A DNA stretch of 64,000 nucleotides from Tubiluchus corallicola (Eukaryota > Animalia > Priapulida): NCBI GenBank assembly GCA_030141605.1, contig JAQGDQ010000082.1, positions 496,001 through 560,000 on the forward strand, in the 5' to 3' direction. Position 1 is the stretch's first letter. Every line of letters begins with the position of its first letter. Below the pieces are notes generated by a model. That model was not told the DNA's origin. It saw nothing but the letters and a program-made list of their open reading frames with translations, and did not search any database. Below are positions 7,401-63,210 of the stretch, in pieces. The translations under genes and the position numbers were made by a program.

Positions 7401-10400
7401 CTAGACTAGCTTGATTTAAATTTTTTGCTCAAACAAGTCTGCATACATTTTAGACACACAAAGGCTTTATCGAATCTTGAAAATTTTAGATTTCCGATAA
7501 TTATTTCCGATTCAAATCTTGACTTTTTAATTTTTTTCTTTGAATAAAGTAGCAAAAACAAAAAACGAACTTCAGTATCTATCACACCACAATCGAATAA
7601 CATTAGTTATCAGTTAAATCATTATTCAGTCAATTATTAGACAGCAAAAGCATAATATCAAATTCCCTCGAAATAAGCACATTACTAGTACTAATAATAT
7701 GCAAAAAAAAACAGAAATGATTGGGTTGATAGAGCAAACTTTTATAAACGAGCAAAAAGTTTTGGAAAATACCACGCCTAGACCCGTTTAAAAGGAATGC
7801 AGAAAATTATTATTTTCAGCTGCGGTTAGTTTCACTGCGGTAAATGACGTTTATTTCGCACAACAACTAGAACAGAATGTTAATAGTATACAACCATTAG
7901 TTCAACTAGCTAAAAACTATTATTATCCGCTAAAACCAGCTAAAACACGAAATTTTTAGCTGTATTCGACCCACCAAAAAAAACCTGCCTGCGAACTTAT
8001 GCTCCAGACTAAGAAACTGATTTCCTAGGACAAGCGGCAGTATCATTATTTCAGCTGTATTTTGCAAAAGAAACGCATCATTATCTGTCTTTTGGTGCAT
8101 TTTTAAGACAGCTAAGTCACTGCCCGAAAACAATTAAATTCGAACTATCGATAATTTTAAGAAAACATATCAGCGTATAAAGGCAAAGGCTTACTTAACT
8201 TATATGATTATGGTGGAACCGGAAGTAGTTACATCATCTCTCAATAAGGTAAAAGCCAGAATCAGTCTGGTACGCGAAATCGCATAGTATGAGTACTGAA
8301 TCTGGCAGTCATCCCTCTGCTCATTAACCAGCCTCACCGTTGCTCAAAGTGCTGGTCATTAAGCACAGAATTTGACCACTCGGCTTTTCCCCAACCATAA
8401 ACCCCTGTGTTCGACATAGGATTGTGGCGGTTTGATATTGCTCAGCAAAACTTTTAAATTGTCTCCTGTTTTTCATAAACTACGATAACGCATTTATCTT
8501 GGTCATTAATATCACATATTTCAATATATTGTTATGTACAGATACACATTGAACTTTATGTATATGTACATATTTTCATTATGGTAGTGTTGTTTCAGCA
8601 ATGTAGAAGCATGTCGAATTTTTGCGTGTTGCTTTATAAATGTTGCCCAGTATGCATATCTAAGACTTATTTAATCCATATTAAACCAAGCAAGTTCCGG
8701 TTATATGGATCAGTCGACTTTTCAATAAGTCGTCATACTCGCAGAGTGTGGGCGAGTATATACACAAAAACACACAATCACACATGCTCAAAATGCTTAC
8801 TAGTGCGTCAATCGCAGAACCTTGCGTCCACCATGATAAATATTGATTTTTCGTTTTGAATCGGTGATCAGAACAAATGAATGACGCCGACCTCCAAAGA
8901 CGGGATAAGTCAACCATGTTATGTCAATTTAAACAAGAGAGTTTTTAAAAGCGATCTTTAGAAAATCCGGTTACACGTGGAATTAAAGTGATAGATTTCC
9001 AACAAATTTTACAAATACGGACGATTTTGAACGATTTTGAATCTTTTGTCACACGGGCAAACATCAACGTAATGTTGCTTTTATTTTTTACAATAATTTT
9101 TAAATTCTTAGCTAATTTAAAATACTAACTGACCACATCAATTAAAACTATACTGCTTATTTTGCAATATAGTTGTGTTTTGTACAGGTAAACTTTGCCA
9201 TTACTGGGCTTCTCAACTATACCCATTATTAACGTTAGAAGACAGGTCAAAATCTGCCTTCGTAAATTCTGCCTAATCTTTAAAGAACTTATTGATTATC
9301 AGTAAGGTGGTATGACTGCATTTTCTTTTGTAGACAGGTGACAATGTAGACCATACGCGTGTGATAACGAACTCGATTTACCCGTGTCGGAATGGGATAT
9401 TTACCTATGACTCATGTTCGCGACTATTAGCTCACCTGGAGTGAAGTTTCAGTTAGGTTGTAAATTTACATCTATGAAAGCCCGATTGGTTACTGGCGAC
9501 ATCTACCGGTGAGGAAAGTAAGTAAAATACTTCGGAATCGCCAAAATCCACTACTGCTAAACAACCCGCATATGATTCTCGAAATATAAAATAATAGGAT
9601 AAAAAAATTAAAGCATATATATTTGCTAGATATTACTAAAGGAAAATGGTATCCATCTGACATGCTCACAACAAACAGAAAATAACTGGCGGATTTTTTA
9701 AATCATATTTATCAAACGCTATTTAACTTGGCCTGGCTGTGTGAAAATTTTGAACTGTTCAATTGGCAAACGAGGAAATGAACGCAAACATCTGCCACCT
9801 CTAGTTATTCAACATTAGTGTCACAATCAATCAACTTCGCGTAACTACAGTCAAGAAAATGTCTTCGAACTAAAATGATTATCAGTGACTTTATAATGCG
9901 AAATATTGGTAGAAAAATACATATGAAGCTGACAAACCAATGCAAACATCCACTGATAATCCACTTTACCAAGTGGTGATAAGCATGCCTCGGTAATCCA
10001 CTTCAGTGGGATACACATCCCTTTTCATAGAAATCGGAAGTGGCCGGAAACGTGGCATCAGTGGAATGTAATGTGTGGGAAAAATTGGGCCGGAATGTAG
10101 TGTAGTTACAGGAAACTATTGCGGGGTAATGTGACGCATGTGTACAAAACTATCTCAGTACATGGCTCTCAAGGCAAAATTGCCTACCTCTAATCCCCTG
10201 TCCTGCACGGAATACGGAGGAAAAATAATAAGATCATAAACATTAAAGGCCCATGAAATGAAAAGAATATTGCACATTGGAGTACACGATCATAAACTAC
10301 AATTGCATGCAAATTAGGTTTTCCTGAGAATTAAATTTTATTTTTATAAATTAATATTTTTTCAACATTTTAGTCACATGAAACAATAGTACAATTTGCA

Positions 10401-10734
10401 GTTTCTAAAAATCAAAAACACGCATTTATATAAGCTACAGCACGTCTACAAATTCTACCCAAGGAACGAGATAGGTGCAGGCTTTATTGGATCTTTCATT
10501 CTTTTAGCTTAGAGAAAAGTAAATACGCGTTTTCACAACATTTTAATATCACACAACTTAATTATATAATATATATGGACAAATTAGGCATAATCACGTT
10601 AGATGTAACGAACTAAGTAATTATATCTAACGGCAAATGGTACCAGATCACTAACAGGCTATTTGTCAGAACTTACATAAAAGAAGCAAAATAACACAAA
10701 CAACACAAAACGTGCTTTGTTTATTGATGCTTAC

Positions 10735-11174
10735 CAGTTTCCATGACGTCTAGAACAGCTTCCACCATACCCCATCAATGATCCTTCACTATTTTGTCTT
10801 CTATGAAAGTTTCCTCTTTGCTCAGAGTATCGTGTCCCACGACTACAGTACCCCCCGAAATGACCAAGGCCTGGCGAAGCTACAATAGGCGTGATGGCGC
10901 CACTGCTGCTTAGGTAACCACCGTCGCTGCTAGAATCGTTCACCACGCTCGAGCAACAATGTCGACAAAGACATTCCGGTCCATGAGCGTCCTCCACTGG
11001 TAACTGATTAACAACAGGACGACTATAGGCGGTGTACACACGATTGGAGATGTACTCTCTAGTATAACGACAGTGCATGACTATGATCACGAGAATGCCA
11101 ATCACTACTGATGCTAGAAGCCAAGCATCTGGCTGCCACGCGAACCAACTACAGTCATCACTTACAAGCTGCAT
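10735..11174 (-). CDS. Candidate alternative first coding exon encoding a transmembrane N-terminus (146 aa plus a phase-2 remainder), probably of PDZ-GEF
   Basis: GC-richer, protein-like ORF; strong acceptor ttattttacag| at 11421; the ORF's apparent stop is inside the donor AACTG|gtaagc; hydrophobic run AWLLASVVIGILVIIVM. Confidence 0.65.
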
Positions 11175-12355
11175 AGCGATGGTGGTTGGACGGGTGCCAT
11201 GCTTATGTTCTCTATTTGGAACTATTTACGCCGAGGGGTTTGGTGACAGACGTTATCGCCGAACTGGGCTGTTTTTTGAAGCTAGTGAAGCCAGACTCAC
11301 TGAACTGACAATGTTCTGAGAACTTCTGACGTGTGCTGGCTTTCGTTTTTGATTCAGGAACAGTTATTATTAAGCAATACTGATTTCGATTTGGAAAAAG
11401 TACAGAAATGCTTTTGATCAACTGTAAAATAAAACAATAGAAAAGTGAAAACGATGTGGGAAAATATTAAAAAGTTTCAAATTCACTCTTAGCGGGAGTA
11501 AAATAAGATTTGGTGTCGAAAAACAACATTTTAAAACAGCAAAACCTAGAAGAAAATCAGCACAGAAACAGCAAAAACAAGGAATTATAATAAACAAGCT
11601 ACTTTCTTACGAAGTGTTTTGCTCAGCACACAATTATAATAAAAACCGCATTCCACACAACATTACATCTCATTCAGCGACGCATTTTACAAACGCCCAC
11701 TCTCAATAATTTGACTGATGGTTTCCCAGCTTCCCTTACTCGTTATATTAAAGGTAATTTCATCAGAATCCCATCCTCTCCTACGCGTTATATTAAATGC
11801 AATTCGATCATAAAATTGCTGCAAATGATGAGAATGTGCACCTGCGCACAGAAACTTATAATAATTTAAATCAAACACTCGGTTTTACTGAAATTAATGG
11901 CTTAACACACTGAAATTAAATAAATGCTCTTCGAAAAGTACAAGCAGAAAATTTCCATGCCTATGATGAATTCATTGAACTCATTGCACAATAACTATTT
12001 TTAATCTCAGTCTGTCGGTATACGTTGCCTTATGCGTCGTACACCACCACGCCCCCTACGCCACAACCAAGATCCACCGATGCAAACTCCCACCAGCACT
12101 ACCTACTAGAAATCACTTGTCCCACAGAAACCACACAAAAAGAAGCCATTGTAACGATATACAAGAAACCACTTGTGATATATAAATCCATGGGATTTCT
12201 AATGAAGCCAAAGTAAATAAAGATTTATCCAGCATTGGTATACGGTTCTGCCCACAGGAATGTAAACACGGTCAATTTATTGCCGAAATGAAGTGCTTTT
12301 TAATCCCATAGCATATAAAATGGGTGGAATTGTCAGCAAAACTAGGCCTCCGTCA

Positions 12356-12543
<188 letters not shown>

Positions 12544-15500
12544 ATCTCTATCTCCCCTACTCTGTTGTCTCTCTTCCACTCTTATTTTTCACTCCTTTTC
12601 GTTCCCCAGTTTATTACGTAGAATATGGAATTAGATGAAAATTGGTACCAAACTCATGTTTGCTTCTTTCTGTACTACTCCTAGATCTCTTCTTTTTCAT
12701 TATATTACTTTTTATGCTCATTATTTCCTTCATGACCCTAATCTCCACCCAGCCATCCACACATCTCCCCCCCTCTCTCTCTCTATCCCTGCCTTCCTAT
12801 CTCTCACACACTCGCACTCGCTCTCCCCTCCCCCCTCTCTCTCTCTCTCCCTCCCCATTTTACCTTTTCTGCGGCAAAGGTAAAACATTAATGAACTCGA
12901 AAGTCTCAATGATTATTTGTTTTTTTTTAAATTTTCTTCGCGGCTTCGCAGACTATACCTGTCATTTACATAGCTAGTACTTTCCGATTCATTTAGTTCG
13001 TTATACAGGACCTAAAGTTATAAGTCAGTTACGGAGCAACTAATGAGCAAATTAGACGCGCTCCATTTGAATATTCCTGCATTAAATGGCCATACTGAAT
13101 GATTTGGTCTAATTTTGTCGATCTGCAAAGTCTGCGATGAATTAAAGAATCACACTAAGGAATTTGGCCTAGATGTTTAAAGCCCCCAGGAATACTTCTG
13201 AGAATATAGTGAGAAGCCCTGCGTGATTTTATTAGTGTAGCACATCGACTTCCACATATAATTAGCAGAAACACTTCATTTCAAATATTCCGTGTTTCAT
13301 ACAGGACTTGGAAAACTCGGGCAGATATTTTTTACTCTGGAGATGGCAAGGCCTCGTAGCCCATACTAAAAACATTGACCAATGCGATACACCCTTTTAC
13401 AATAAGATTAATTTTCGCCTTAACTGAATCAGAAAAAAACTTTTCCGACATTTTCCTAGCTAGCTCTCTTCACTTGCAATTTCATCAAAGTAAAAAAGAC
13501 CAGGAAAAAACGGTGCCATTACATTGGCATTTGGTTTAGCTGGTTATTTGAAGTTATCATTCCTGCGACTGCATTTTATAAAGCAAGAAAATCTTCGCAA
13601 AAAAGGAATAAAAACGAAAGAAAATTTCAATCACATCTGTGACATCTTAAGACGTCTCTGCCAATTCAGTGCTTCACCTTACATGCTTTCACATCATTGA
13701 AAACGAGACAGATTCCAGTCTCGCCACAACCAACGGGTAGCAACCCTTTCGTCAAAATATTCTGCTGCAGCTTTTATAAGTCTTGGCACATTGTGTACAC
13801 ATTTTTTTAAGTTGTTCTAATAATTTTCCCCAATGACACACACTCCATTTCAAAACATCAAATAAACTGCATTCCTCGCTTACTCCTGAGGTTATTAAAA
13901 CAAACAACCCTTCAACAAACTACCCAAACATTTGTTAACACCAGGAAAACTAACAGCGCTCACGGCTCAAAATTCAGTTCAACAAATTCCTAGCACGCAC
14001 GAGCGAACTGACAACTTAAAACTCACAACAAACACACTCATGTTTAACATACACGGATTCATAACAACTCGCTTAAGTTTAAAATATTAGACGATTAAAA
14101 CACAAAACACGCTAATATGTCTATTAAGTAGGAAAGCGTCTAAAAAGGAATTGCTTTTTAGTATTACGAGGTTTAATGCAGTGTCTATATACGTACAGAA
14201 ACACATATGTGTATGTCATTACGAATAATCACAGAAAGAATTTTAGCTAACTGTAATTGCACTGATATAATTGCTATATACATCTAGCTAATTAATGACA
14301 CTGATATATTGCAACATACAGAGGAGATCTATACACATTGTAAATTGCCAGTGAACGTGAAAACATTCTCAGCTCCGGGCAAAAATGTCTAAAATTAATT
14401 TGGAATTTTCTTTCCTAATGATTGCTCAAGGCACAGGCAGTGTGCACAATGCTAAAGAAAGCAGTAACACAGCCTAATCTACGAGTTATATACACAAGGC
14501 AATAAAGGTCTAGCAAAAAACGCTTCCTTGAAAAAAAACAATTACAATATCATGATAAAATGGTCAGTCATTAAGATAGCACACTAACAATACAGAGTTA
14601 AAAATAGTCCTTGTGCAACACCTGACACACTCAAGCATACTCACACGTGTCTGCAGACCACCAGTTCAGCATCAGTAACCACCACAGAGACCAGCACCAC
14701 ACTGACACTGAAGCCAAAAGTACATGTACTTCATCACCATGTCAGTGGAAGAGACTTTAAGAGAGATAATTGATGGTAGACACCATAAAGTACAACCGGA
14801 TTCCGGAATTAACCAGCAAGCGTCAGCTTATCTTTACAGTGGCTTCTCACATTTTGTTTTTTATTTCCCCCTACAAACTCGAAACAGATTTAGGTGCAGC
14901 AAATTTATCTCAACTCGTTTTTCCTTTACAAACCTTAAAAACTACTGACAAAAAAGTAACGACTTGAAATCTTTAATGCATTCTTACAATAGTTCATAAA
15001 GAGAAATGGCACTTAAATGTGCTTTCATAAACAACTAACTCGCGCCCAAATAGACTTGAAAACGATTTTGTCCATACTGTTTAGTATTTAGTACTTGGTT
15101 TCCCAAGTGAGAAAAGAATTCGTTTAGAAGTACAAACGACAAATTTTATTTTACACCAAATGTTACAGCGACTATAATATATAACAAAAAATTTTCTCTA
15201 CTATTTACACGAAGCAAAGTTGCAGTAAAAGAAACTTTTCGACATTCAAAGATATCATTTATTCGGAATATATATGTAATACGTAGACCAATAAATCAGT
15301 TTAGTAAAATTGGTCATAATAATAATAATAATAAAAGCAGTTTATGATTACTGGAGAAATAAGCATTTTCAAAGCACAATATCTGTTTTAATGGGCTGCA
15401 ATGTAAGAAGGTTTGAGTTAAAAAACTTGCAACAAGACCTCTCAGTCAACGATAATGTGGGAACAAAGATATCCCGCGTGAAAATTTTTTACTTAGATAG

Positions 15501-28645: not shown

Positions 28646-28729
28646 CTGCTCCTTGGCAAGAACATTGATCCATCAATGAACACTGAACCAGAGAGTAAAA
28701 TGTACCAACAAGTTGATAATTCCCCACGA
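28646..28729 (-). CDS. RAPGEF2: PDZ-GEF (RAPGEF2/6) coding exon 3
   Basis: ctttgcag|T RGELSTCWYILLSGSVFIDGSMFLPRS AG|gtgagt; matches RAPGEF2/6 'TCWYILLSGSVFI..SMFLPRSS'. Confidence 0.95.
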
Positions 28730-31867: not shown

Positions 31868-31995
31868 CAGTAAAGTATATCGTTGGCCTTGTGACGTTCA
31901 TAGCGCACGTTACGACAAATTGCTCTCAGGGCTGGCTCCCTAAGTTGAGATAGGGCCTCCATACCATGCAAATGAGCAAAAATATACTGCAAGTC
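31868..31995 (-). CDS. RAPGEF2: PDZ-GEF (RAPGEF2/6) coding exon 2, N-terminal cNMP-binding-like domain
   Basis: ttttttcag|DLQYIFAHLHGMEALSQLREPALRAICRNVRYERHKANDILY TG|gtatgt; matches RAPGEF2/6 'YSYLHGMEALSNLREHQLRLM..VRYERH.AN..LY'. Confidence 0.95.
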
Positions 31996-49743: not shown

Positions 49744-49902
49744 CTGAGGCATACGATCAGATGGGGGCCGCCTAACAGCCTGTATGAACCATGGATCAGG
49801 ATATGCAGTGGGTGGTGACAAAAGAGGAGGGGGAAGAGGAGGTGGGGAATGTGCCACTGGTCGGGCAATCATGGGGACTGGCTTCGCACCAGGGTACCAC
49901 AT
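49744..49902 (-). CDS. RAPGEF2: PDZ-GEF (RAPGEF2/6) first coding exon; the exon begins at 49962 with 5' UTR
   Basis: MWYPGAKPVPMIARPVAHSPPPLPPPLLSPPTAYPDPWFIQAVRRPPSDRMPQ|gtaagt; its end matches vertebrate 'FRQAVMKNPPERTPQ'; phase 0 into the next exon. Confidence 0.85.
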
Positions 49903-51925
49903 GTTGCTGTTGTCGGCGCCGATCTAAGTACACGAGATGTTCTCCATGTAGTAAGATATGAACTGAAAATAAAAAAGATTCCAGTACATGAAATAGTAAA
50001 TGTAAATGCAGTTAATAATAACTTTGTACCTACTTAGTTTCAAGCTTTTCAATCATTAATATAATGAAGAAACCAAATTTATTGAAAACTAAAATGAAAT
50101 GTGAATGAGCCTGCAATTCAACCAGGATGCTTGGGATAAGAGCTCAACGTTTTAGCCATAAGACCATCTAGTCCCTTTTGGCTTTTGATTTTAAATATCA
50201 TTTTATCACCTATACAGTTACATGAGCAAACAAATGTATGCTTAGTTACGTACAACTTATATGCATTCTTATGTCAAATGAATTGCATGTAATACTAGAT
50301 ACACTACAAAATTAAATTTAAGCCTACCACAAAAATTCTTACTCACAGAGCAAAACGTGTAAATGTCTTAATGTTGCTCTAGGTAGGTCTACTGAGCGGA
50401 ACCATGTGCATCATTCTGTTAAGTTCTGTGAAGTCTAAACTTACATTACAGAGCTTGCATTTACGTCTAAAATAATTTTTCTTATTTATTTCTCCTCTAG
50501 GACATGTGCAGATTTAAAATCGTGTACTTACTTACAGTACTTGCCCAACATCAGATATAAGACCTGACATGGCAGAGTTTGTCAGTGTTGATGGACCGTA
50601 TGGACACAAAGAATCACAGTGAAATATAAACATCATTCAAGCTTGACGAAATAAAGCTAGATCATCATTCTCGATATGAACAGCCAATAACAGTGTGCGT
50701 TGGTGACTCAGTAGAAGAGCTCATTTATACCAGGTGCTGTACGTTTCCCAATCAAAACACATAATGCTGATAAGTTGCAACAGAAATCATTTCAGAAATT
50801 CTACAAGAATCAAACCAACTTACCTATACCATCTGTATGTTGTTATTACACCCAAAATTCTTCTTGGTATCCAATGAGACTGAGATACAACGCGTTAAAC
50901 AAAAAATAGTTGGCAATTAGGAAGTTTGCAAAACAAATTGCTTGGAAGCGTGCCAGGAATCAACGACTCAAGTAACACAGGTTTCAGATACAACACACTG
51001 CACTCAACGTTGATATACGTAAGGCACCTATAAGCTAGTACCACGTGAAATAAATTATAAAATTACTAACACTGTCATTCACGATGACTACCAATGGATA
51101 AACGTAGCTTACGACTAGCGCTGTATAATATTTCCATTTGAACAATTTTACTGGATCAGTGTCTAATAATGCTTGGGGATGGCCAATTGCATACAACAGG
51201 CAAAGAAATTGATCACTGTTATATTTGCTGAACACGCAAGTGCTTTCTTATAAATAGATCACTGTTAAACTGGCAAAACACATACACATTAATTATTCCA
51301 TAATACTGATGGCAGTCCAAAAAACTCTGAATCACACTATAACTGGTGAAACAGAAGTGCAGATTTCAGCAGATCGAGCAAATGCTTACAACAGCACAGC
51401 AGTTCAGCACCTGTAAAAAAGAACAAACTACTATTAGTATAACAACAACAGCTAATTACAAATGCCCAGCTTAATGCCTACTATAAAATGATCATAAATC
51501 TGAGGGTGCAGTGTTGCACGGTAGTTGGAACACGCAAATAAACTAAAAAGTCACGAACTAAATTTAACTAATGTTTAATCAATGTGGTCACTTAAGCTAG
51601 TCGAACTACTAAATCAAAGGAAACAATTTAAAGAATTGAACCAAATGTACCAAATAAACAAATGACCAAAATAATAATAGTCATAAACGGTTTAAACGCT
51701 TACTACTTTGCACACTTTCTGTTAATTAAAGTTTCTCTTTTGACGTTAGTACTGTAATTTAAAGTTCAGGCAACCAGAATCATCCAACGTAATTTTCTAC
51801 CGTATACATGTACAGATGAGATAAGAGAACAGCGCGCTACAACAACTGTAACTCTAAAATGAACAATACACAATTACGCGCCGCGATCAGTTGTCCACAA
51901 AAGTAAACACAAATACATAACTCAC

Positions 51926-62869: not shown

Positions 62870-63210
62870 ATTTGGAAAGCGCCACGTAGCGCATAGCATT
62901 AAACTCGTATTTTTCCGTGTTTTCATTTAATTACATAAAGTATACATTTGCAAATCTTGGCAAGTAATATATTATTCGTTTCTAAATTTGCCATAAATTG
63001 TCTTACAGTTGTATCTAAAGTTATTAATTTTAAAATTCGAGTTAAATTTTAAAAAAATCTGAAAAACGCAGCTTCGGAAAAGTTCGGTATTTGCCTCGTG
63101 ACAAAGTTATGGTGCTATTTGTAAACAACATTTTGCTGTACTTTTGCATCTGCGAAGGCGATTGTTGATTTTCAAAATTTTTGTCCGAGAAGTTATTTTC
63201 AGCCAGCAAA
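62870..63210. promoter_or_regulatory. Bidirectional promoter and 5' UTR region shared by LRPAP1 and 4E-BP
   Basis: 341 bp between divergent ATGs; YY1-like ATGGCGGC overlaps the LRPAP1 start. Confidence 0.7.

Follow-up and report, generated by a model that had tools for sequence, protein, structure and literature searches.

A candidate composite first coding exon with a predicted membrane anchor in intron 3 of an animal RAPGEF2/6 gene

Within intron 3 of a RAPGEF2/6 (PDZ-GEF) gene, we identified a 687 nt candidate composite exon (10735..11421, minus strand), made up of a 247 nt untranslated leader and 440 nt of coding sequence. The block is a real, non-random exon-like unit. With a probability of about 0.5, we interpret it as a composite alternative first coding exon, whose spliced product would be a Rap GEF with a type III membrane anchor and whose polyadenylated product would be a 147-residue membrane protein. 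The spliced membrane isoform, taken by itself, we regard as an even proposition. Judging from the sequence, the block most likely represents a new variant, anchored in the membrane, of an isoform class that is already known, and it may yield a short second product as well.

The window, by which we mean the whole 64 kb stretch of animal DNA that was analysed, has a GC content of ~35% and carries the RAPGEF2/6 gene on its minus strand. Using tblastn, we recovered coding exon 1 (49744..49902, 53 codons, phase 0), exon 2 (31868..31995, ending in phase 2) and exon 3 (28646..28729, phase 2 to phase 2), all on the minus strand. Exon 2 shared 76% identity with hemichordate RAPGEF6-like proteins, and exons 2–3 scored almost equally against molluscs, scorpion and brachiopod, indicating that the compared proteins include no close relative. 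A motif scan, tblastn and an ungapped scan all failed to find the conserved exon 4, which starts with S-FGKR in relatives, or the later exons in the 64 kb window, and the block is therefore located in intron 3. This phase 2 intron begins after exon 3, is >28.6 kb long and extends beyond position 1, so that 28,645 nt of it lie within the window.

Two exon-like stretches in the intron, 5226-5152 and 9502-9436, were considered as downstream RAPGEF exons and rejected, as they did not match relatives. GC-richer open frames at 16668-16330 and 5226-5152 (minus strand), also without a match to RAPGEF relatives, are possibly insert remnants or further exons. At ~9200-9265 there is a short high-copy repeat, with a depth near 900 and loose ends in the contigs of sequencing run X1. 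That run gave patchy contigs across the intron and the block with no joints, and run X2 gave none; these data have no bearing on expression. The ATG of the canonical first coding exon has a T-rich acceptor ~60 nt above it, at 49963 (minus strand), which implies either trans-splicing or a non-coding exon further upstream. Elsewhere in the window, a minus-strand multi-exon gene at about 62900-55450, which we take to be similar to LRPAP1 (receptor-associated protein), stands head to head with a plus-strand first exon starting at 63208, ~300 nt away, which presumably belongs to a gene resembling eIF4E-binding protein.

The first-pass annotation had proposed a 687 nt exon with its acceptor at 11421 and its donor at 10735, and both boundaries were correct. 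A T-rich tract and ACAG precede the first exon base at 11421, and the last exon base at 10735 is followed by the donor in the context TG|GTAAGC. The acceptor (11422..11444, minus strand) has 16 pyrimidines in 20 positions, 15 of them T, and only 5 of the 345 YAG candidates in intron 3 are more pyrimidine-rich. The donor GTAAGC (10729..10734, minus strand, phase 2) is one of the eight places at which the sense strand of the intron reads G|GTRAG. Base composition follows these boundaries: GC content is 0.44-0.55 across 10800-11299, falls to 0.22-0.36 below 10700, and is 0.29-0.30 across 11400-11599. The drop across the donor, from 0.47 to 0.32, resembles that at the three known donors of the gene (0.53 to 0.30, 0.48 to 0.36 and 0.41 to 0.27), and no comparable step was seen at any of the six other strong donor-like sites in intron 3, the eighth site (position 14) being left out of the comparison. 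The peptides are as quoted, but the open frame occupies only the 3' 440 nt, from the ATG at 11174, and the first 247 nt contain six stops in that frame. Folding of the leader RNA gave no signal (z -0.77). Lying 0.6-1.1 kb upstream of the acceptor are a 100 nt GC-rich patch (0.54; 12000-12099) and a 97-copy TC/GA microsatellite (12360-12554), which together represent a possible promoter or non-coding first exon.

The coding part of the block (10735..11174, minus strand) is a 146-codon ATG frame that reaches the donor with TG, in phase 2; read through unspliced, it ends with Trp and a stop at 10731, giving 147 aa. The presence of a stop inside the donor is no additional evidence, because it is automatic for a phase 2 GTAA site. 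This is the longest ATG frame in the part of intron 3 within the window. Block-wise dinucleotide shuffling of the intron gave an ATG frame of at least 147 codons in 9 of 400 shuffles, a frame of at least 100 codons reaching a phase 2 G|GTRAG donor in 4 of 400, and one of at least 146 codons reaching such a donor in none, in controls that cover one intron while the block itself was picked by a genome-wide scan among many introns. When the ORF was shuffled, the frame was still free of stops in 2 of 5000 cases. Synonymous codon usage, from 394 training codons, missed the true frame for most of the nine known exons.

It is highly unlikely that the block is a chance product, that is, a GC-richer intronic patch or a decayed insert in which a frame and splice-like sites arose by accident. 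The shuffles in which a frame of this length arose, the selection of a best case among many introns by the scan, and the lack of a homologue in the searches made all speak for chance. Against it, five features meet at two sharp boundaries: the acceptor, the frame, the helix, the phase 2 donor and the poly(A) signal with its tract.

Three more short ATG frames end on phase 2 G|GTRAG donors on the minus strand of intron 3, at 22871-22840 (10 codons), 8417-8338 (26 codons) and 27299-27283 (5 codons), and could be further alternative first exons. Such frames showed no enrichment for phase 2, being found at 4 of 8 donors in phase 2 and at 3 of 8 in each of phases 0 and 1. A phase 1 start near the 3' end of the block (ATG 10768 or 10744) was rejected, because relatives have their exon 4 in phase 2 and their exon 5 in phase 0.

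The encoded peptide begins with 16 acidic residues (net charge -3), followed by a predicted type III signal-anchor helix at residues 17-33 (11076..11126, minus strand) and a net charge of +2 over the next 15 residues. The best 19-residue hydropathy of the ORF, 2.57, was matched by none of 5000 residue shuffles. Among 163 ATG frames of at least 40 codons in the window, only two reach this value within their first 40 residues, namely this ORF and one in a CT-rich repeat. The type III signal-anchor pattern that had been noted earlier thus holds, with one N-terminal hydrophobic helix and more positive charge on its C-terminal side. By the positive-inside rule, the more positive flank of a helix faces the cytosol, and from the charge difference across the helix the C-terminus is predicted to be cytosolic. 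On inspection, no small-residue cleavage motif was seen after the helix that follows the acidic N-region. An AlphaFold single-sequence model placed one helix, at residues 15-51, with pLDDT values of 96 and 92 across residues 21-40 and <50 from residue 55. Two further motifs that had been pointed out, a Cys/His cluster (HGPECLCRHCC) and a basophilic-kinase-like site (HRRQNSEG), are both present as sequence motifs.

Searches with the 146 residues suggest that the block is apparently restricted to one lineage. None of 184 candidates of 257-2000 residues matched the peptide at E values up to 1, Pfam returned no family at E values up to 10, the ESM Atlas contained no match of 0.9 or above, and the peptide was absent from the exact-sequence collection. 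None of 165 pattern matches in metagenome contigs was confirmed. The sole match among 1.84 billion representatives was a 2503-residue repeat protein (E 6.8e-4), which we rejected as compositional. Feature likeness to small single-pass proteins was weak (best 0.86) and is a lead only.

An AATAAA poly(A) signal (10720..10725, minus strand) starts 5 nt after the unspliced stop, and is followed by a GU/U-rich tract (10679..10710, minus strand). The AATAAA at 10725 was spotted by eye prior to ranking; when the 186 AATAAA sites of the window were ranked by downstream G+T content, it came first in six of seven window settings, with 31 of 35 positions against 24 for the next best. The same tract also ranked first among 15 strong minus-strand donors, and it could therefore act as a donor enhancer, that is, as an intronic splicing enhancer, in place of or alongside a role as a poly(A) downstream element; it can also serve the poly(A) site alone. 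A donor followed by an in-frame stop, an AATAAA and a GU-rich element is the arrangement of a composite exon. The two alternatives offered by the first-pass annotation, a RAPGEF isoform or a nested gene, are probably not exclusive, as the strong poly(A) signal directly behind the donor supports the idea that this one exon has a stand-alone protein as its second product. The poly(A) signal was absent from that account, as were the overlapping upstream ORF, the donor at 11301 and the truncating last-exon use described below.

The same signal, whose GU-rich downstream tract is stronger than any other in the window, would also be expected of a nested, lineage-restricted gene that encodes a 147-residue single-pass membrane protein with its own poly(A) site and is never spliced to RAPGEF. 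The long intact frame, the clean helix and the weak feature likeness to small single-pass proteins are consistent with such a gene. However, the 28.6 kb contain just eight strong donors, and the frame runs precisely up to one of them in the phase that exon 4 requires, a coincidence that we roughly estimate at ~1 in 100, and the 3' UTR would be only ~30 nt long. We therefore consider a nested gene unlikely.

The strong acceptor and strong poly(A) signal could also bound an alternative last (or poison) exon. Joining exon 3 to the acceptor at 11421 gives AG|T (Ser) and then a TGA stop one codon later, so that the product would be 124 residues long, the ORF would be untranslated and everything else in the block, as far as the poly(A) site, would be 3' UTR. 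A hemichordate RAPGEF fragment of 105 residues (P0002) ends at the same junction, and may be a split annotation. Such use of the block would, however, leave the 146-codon frame, the helix and the phase 2 donor to chance (0 of 400 shuffles). Moreover, the canonical first coding exon is itself preceded by an acceptor, that at 49963, so the acceptor of the block would fit an intron in the 5' UTR too. An alternative last exon is accordingly an improbable reading.

The reading as a composite first coding exon draws on a pattern common in relatives. These were retrieved by a search with residues 100-470 of P0004, from which we took the best 120 of 1,377 clusters and the members of the clusters of 24 proteins, up to 15 each. 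Among the matches listed, 324 RAPGEF-type records comprised 203 with the canonical N-terminus, 61 without the FGKR motif and 60 (36 distinct) with another N-terminus joined at FGKR. Within the same matches, N-termini swapped at the FGKR junction were found in molluscs, arthropods, a nemertean, a brachiopod, a hemichordate and lancelets. The junction residue of the 36 distinct alternative N-termini listed was S in 23, C in 6, N in 2, H in 2, and G, T and V in the others; it was never K, E, Q, M or W. All of these residues allow a codon ending in a pyrimidine, which points to a phase 2 junction with a pyrimidine as the first base of exon 4. Of four metagenome loci, three looked spliced with AGT or AGC (AGY) at the junction codon, and the fourth had exon 5 in phase 0. 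The TG at the end of the block, joined to the first base of exon 4 (a pyrimidine, judging from relatives), would encode Cys at the junction. The block, whose ATG frame in intron 3 stays open as far as a phase 2 donor, matches this common type of alternative first exon in both position and phase.

Invertebrate RAPGEF2/6 isoforms joined at the FGKR exon, such as XP_067136216.1 (scorpion), XP_042883464.1 (prawn) and XP_077999088.1 (acorn worm), share the junction, the phase and the loss of exons 1-3 with the block, and the Cys predicted for it occurs at the junction in 6 of the 36 among the matches listed. These isoforms, which are predicted records, differ from the block in having no transmembrane helix and no significant sequence likeness to it among the matches listed: a transmembrane-like stretch was present in none of the 29 distinct alternative N-termini of at least 19 residues, and their best hydropathy was 1.49, against 2.57 in the block. 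In scorpion, tick, millipede and decapod isoforms (P0147, P0307, P0169, P0069 and P0077), a short basic alternative N-terminus carries Cys at the exon 4 junction, and is perhaps a conserved phospho-regulated leader. A likeness of the ORF end to such arthropod N-termini (RRxS ... RRxxxC; basic-pair spacing) was not significant (P 0.02-0.32, depending on the test). When anchored at the junction, this likeness was equalled by 2-12% of the frames in the window and by 6-32% of the shuffled sequences.

The non-membrane character of all 36 annotated alternative N-termini among the matches listed, many of them short, is also what would be expected if the block were an alternative 5' exon of a soluble RAPGEF isoform. 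Translation would then start after the helix, at one of the later in-frame ATGs (11078 or 10775), or the competing donor GTGAGT (11295..11300, minus strand; last exon base 11301) would be used, yielding a 121 nt non-coding exon that skips the ORF, with a start in exon 4. Isoforms that start in exon 4 are known among the relatives. In addition, a 12-codon out-of-frame upstream ORF (11162..11200, minus strand) overlaps the main ATG at 11174; its own ATG at 11200 is in a good context, better than that of 11174, and it would carry ribosomes past the main start. Set against this, the 32 open codons above 11078 encode an N-terminus that is more hydrophobic than any other non-repeat one in the window and has the correct flanking charges, and we view a soluble product as quite unlikely. 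It should be noted that several observations count against the composite-exon reading: the 146 residues have no relative in the searches made, none of the 29 alternative N-termini scored is transmembrane-like, an out-of-frame ATG has the better context, later in-frame ATGs and the donor at 11301 exist, and exon 3 meets an immediate stop when joined to 11421.

A composite exon is the most economical reading that accounts for every one of the signals. If the block is a composite first coding exon, an internal promoter upstream of 11421 would drive its transcription, and translation from the ATG at 11174 would proceed through leaky scanning past the short upstream ORF. The product would insert into the membrane with 16 residues outside and its C-terminus in the cytosol. 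Where the donor wins, in-frame splicing to the shared exon 4 would yield a type III membrane protein, in which the 16 outer residues form a tail, a single helix follows, and ~113 flexible residues lie in the cytosol together with the entire RAPGEF body. Exons 1-3, which encode 123 residues, would be replaced, and the cNMP, REM, PDZ, RA and RasGEF domains would be kept. In P0004, the cNMP, RasGEF_N, PDZ, RA and RasGEF domains detected by Pfam all begin at residue 346 or later, so all five types are retained by a join at residue 105. The segment lost with exons 1-3 is presumably a degenerate first cyclic-nucleotide-binding domain; Pfam detected no such domain in that segment of P0004. Where cleavage at the poly(A) signal behind the donor wins, the 147-residue anchor alone would be made. 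We speculate, tentatively, that intronic polyadenylation turns this one exon into a toggle, in which splicing would give an integral-membrane Rap1 GEF and polyadenylation an anchor that has the same cytosolic tail but no enzyme; the switch would set the amount of membrane-fixed Rap GEF, and the short form would be a possible competitor of the long one.

N-terminal isoforms that carry a lipid or peptide anchor are known for other signalling proteins, including the acylated long variant of RasGRP2/CalDAG-GEFI and PDE4A1. The secreted/membrane switch of IgM involves competition between a donor and an intronic poly(A) site. In each of these an alternative end sets membrane attachment, as proposed for the block. 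The block differs in that its anchor would be a predicted N-terminal transmembrane helix, and in that use of the poly(A) site would cost the product its enzyme part while leaving the anchor in place. Our literature search returned no report of the acylated long RasGRP2/CalDAG-GEFI variant.

Within the Rap GEF family, mouse Rapgef2 has families of alternative first exons, according to the part of PMC5611689 drawn on here. As described there, NCS-Rapgef2 of mouse and human (the exon 1' family) resembles the block in its alternative first exons, tissue-specific N-terminal leaders and common body, but is joined further downstream, at the exon beginning LPAD, and is described with no membrane anchor. 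Epac2 isoforms (Epac2A/2B/2C, RAPGEF4) lose the first cAMP-binding domain via alternative promoters and change location (PMC3701594, in part). In the text drawn on, domain loss leaves Epac2B diffuse in the cytoplasm, with no transmembrane helix substituted, unlike the block. The first-pass annotation regarded an integral-membrane Rap1 activator as a form not known to be described, and indeed no transmembrane PDZ-GEF or RAPGEF isoform was found in annotated relatives, among the matches listed, or in a relevant report in the open-access literature. As for the activator itself, the frame, phase, position and topology of the block fit it, but its join to RAPGEF is one that we only infer.

At rest, the mammalian RAPGEF2/6 proteins (RA-GEFs) are found in the cytoplasm, and stimulation brings them to membrane rich in phosphatidic acid (PMC7325102, in part), indicating that switching them on includes their recruitment; the main text of that article, as far as it was available, does not use the word 'transmembrane'. 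The spliced form would instead sit permanently on the membrane together with lipid-anchored Rap, and would dispense with the regulated recruitment described for its mammalian counterparts. The weight of this sequence-based finding is limited by the apparent restriction of the block to one lineage. If the proposal is true, a transmembrane helix of its own would separate the localization of the enzyme from its activation, and would offer a natural test of the share of recruitment in Rap1 control. The block would also be a clear example of an alternative first exon bringing in a new targeting module.
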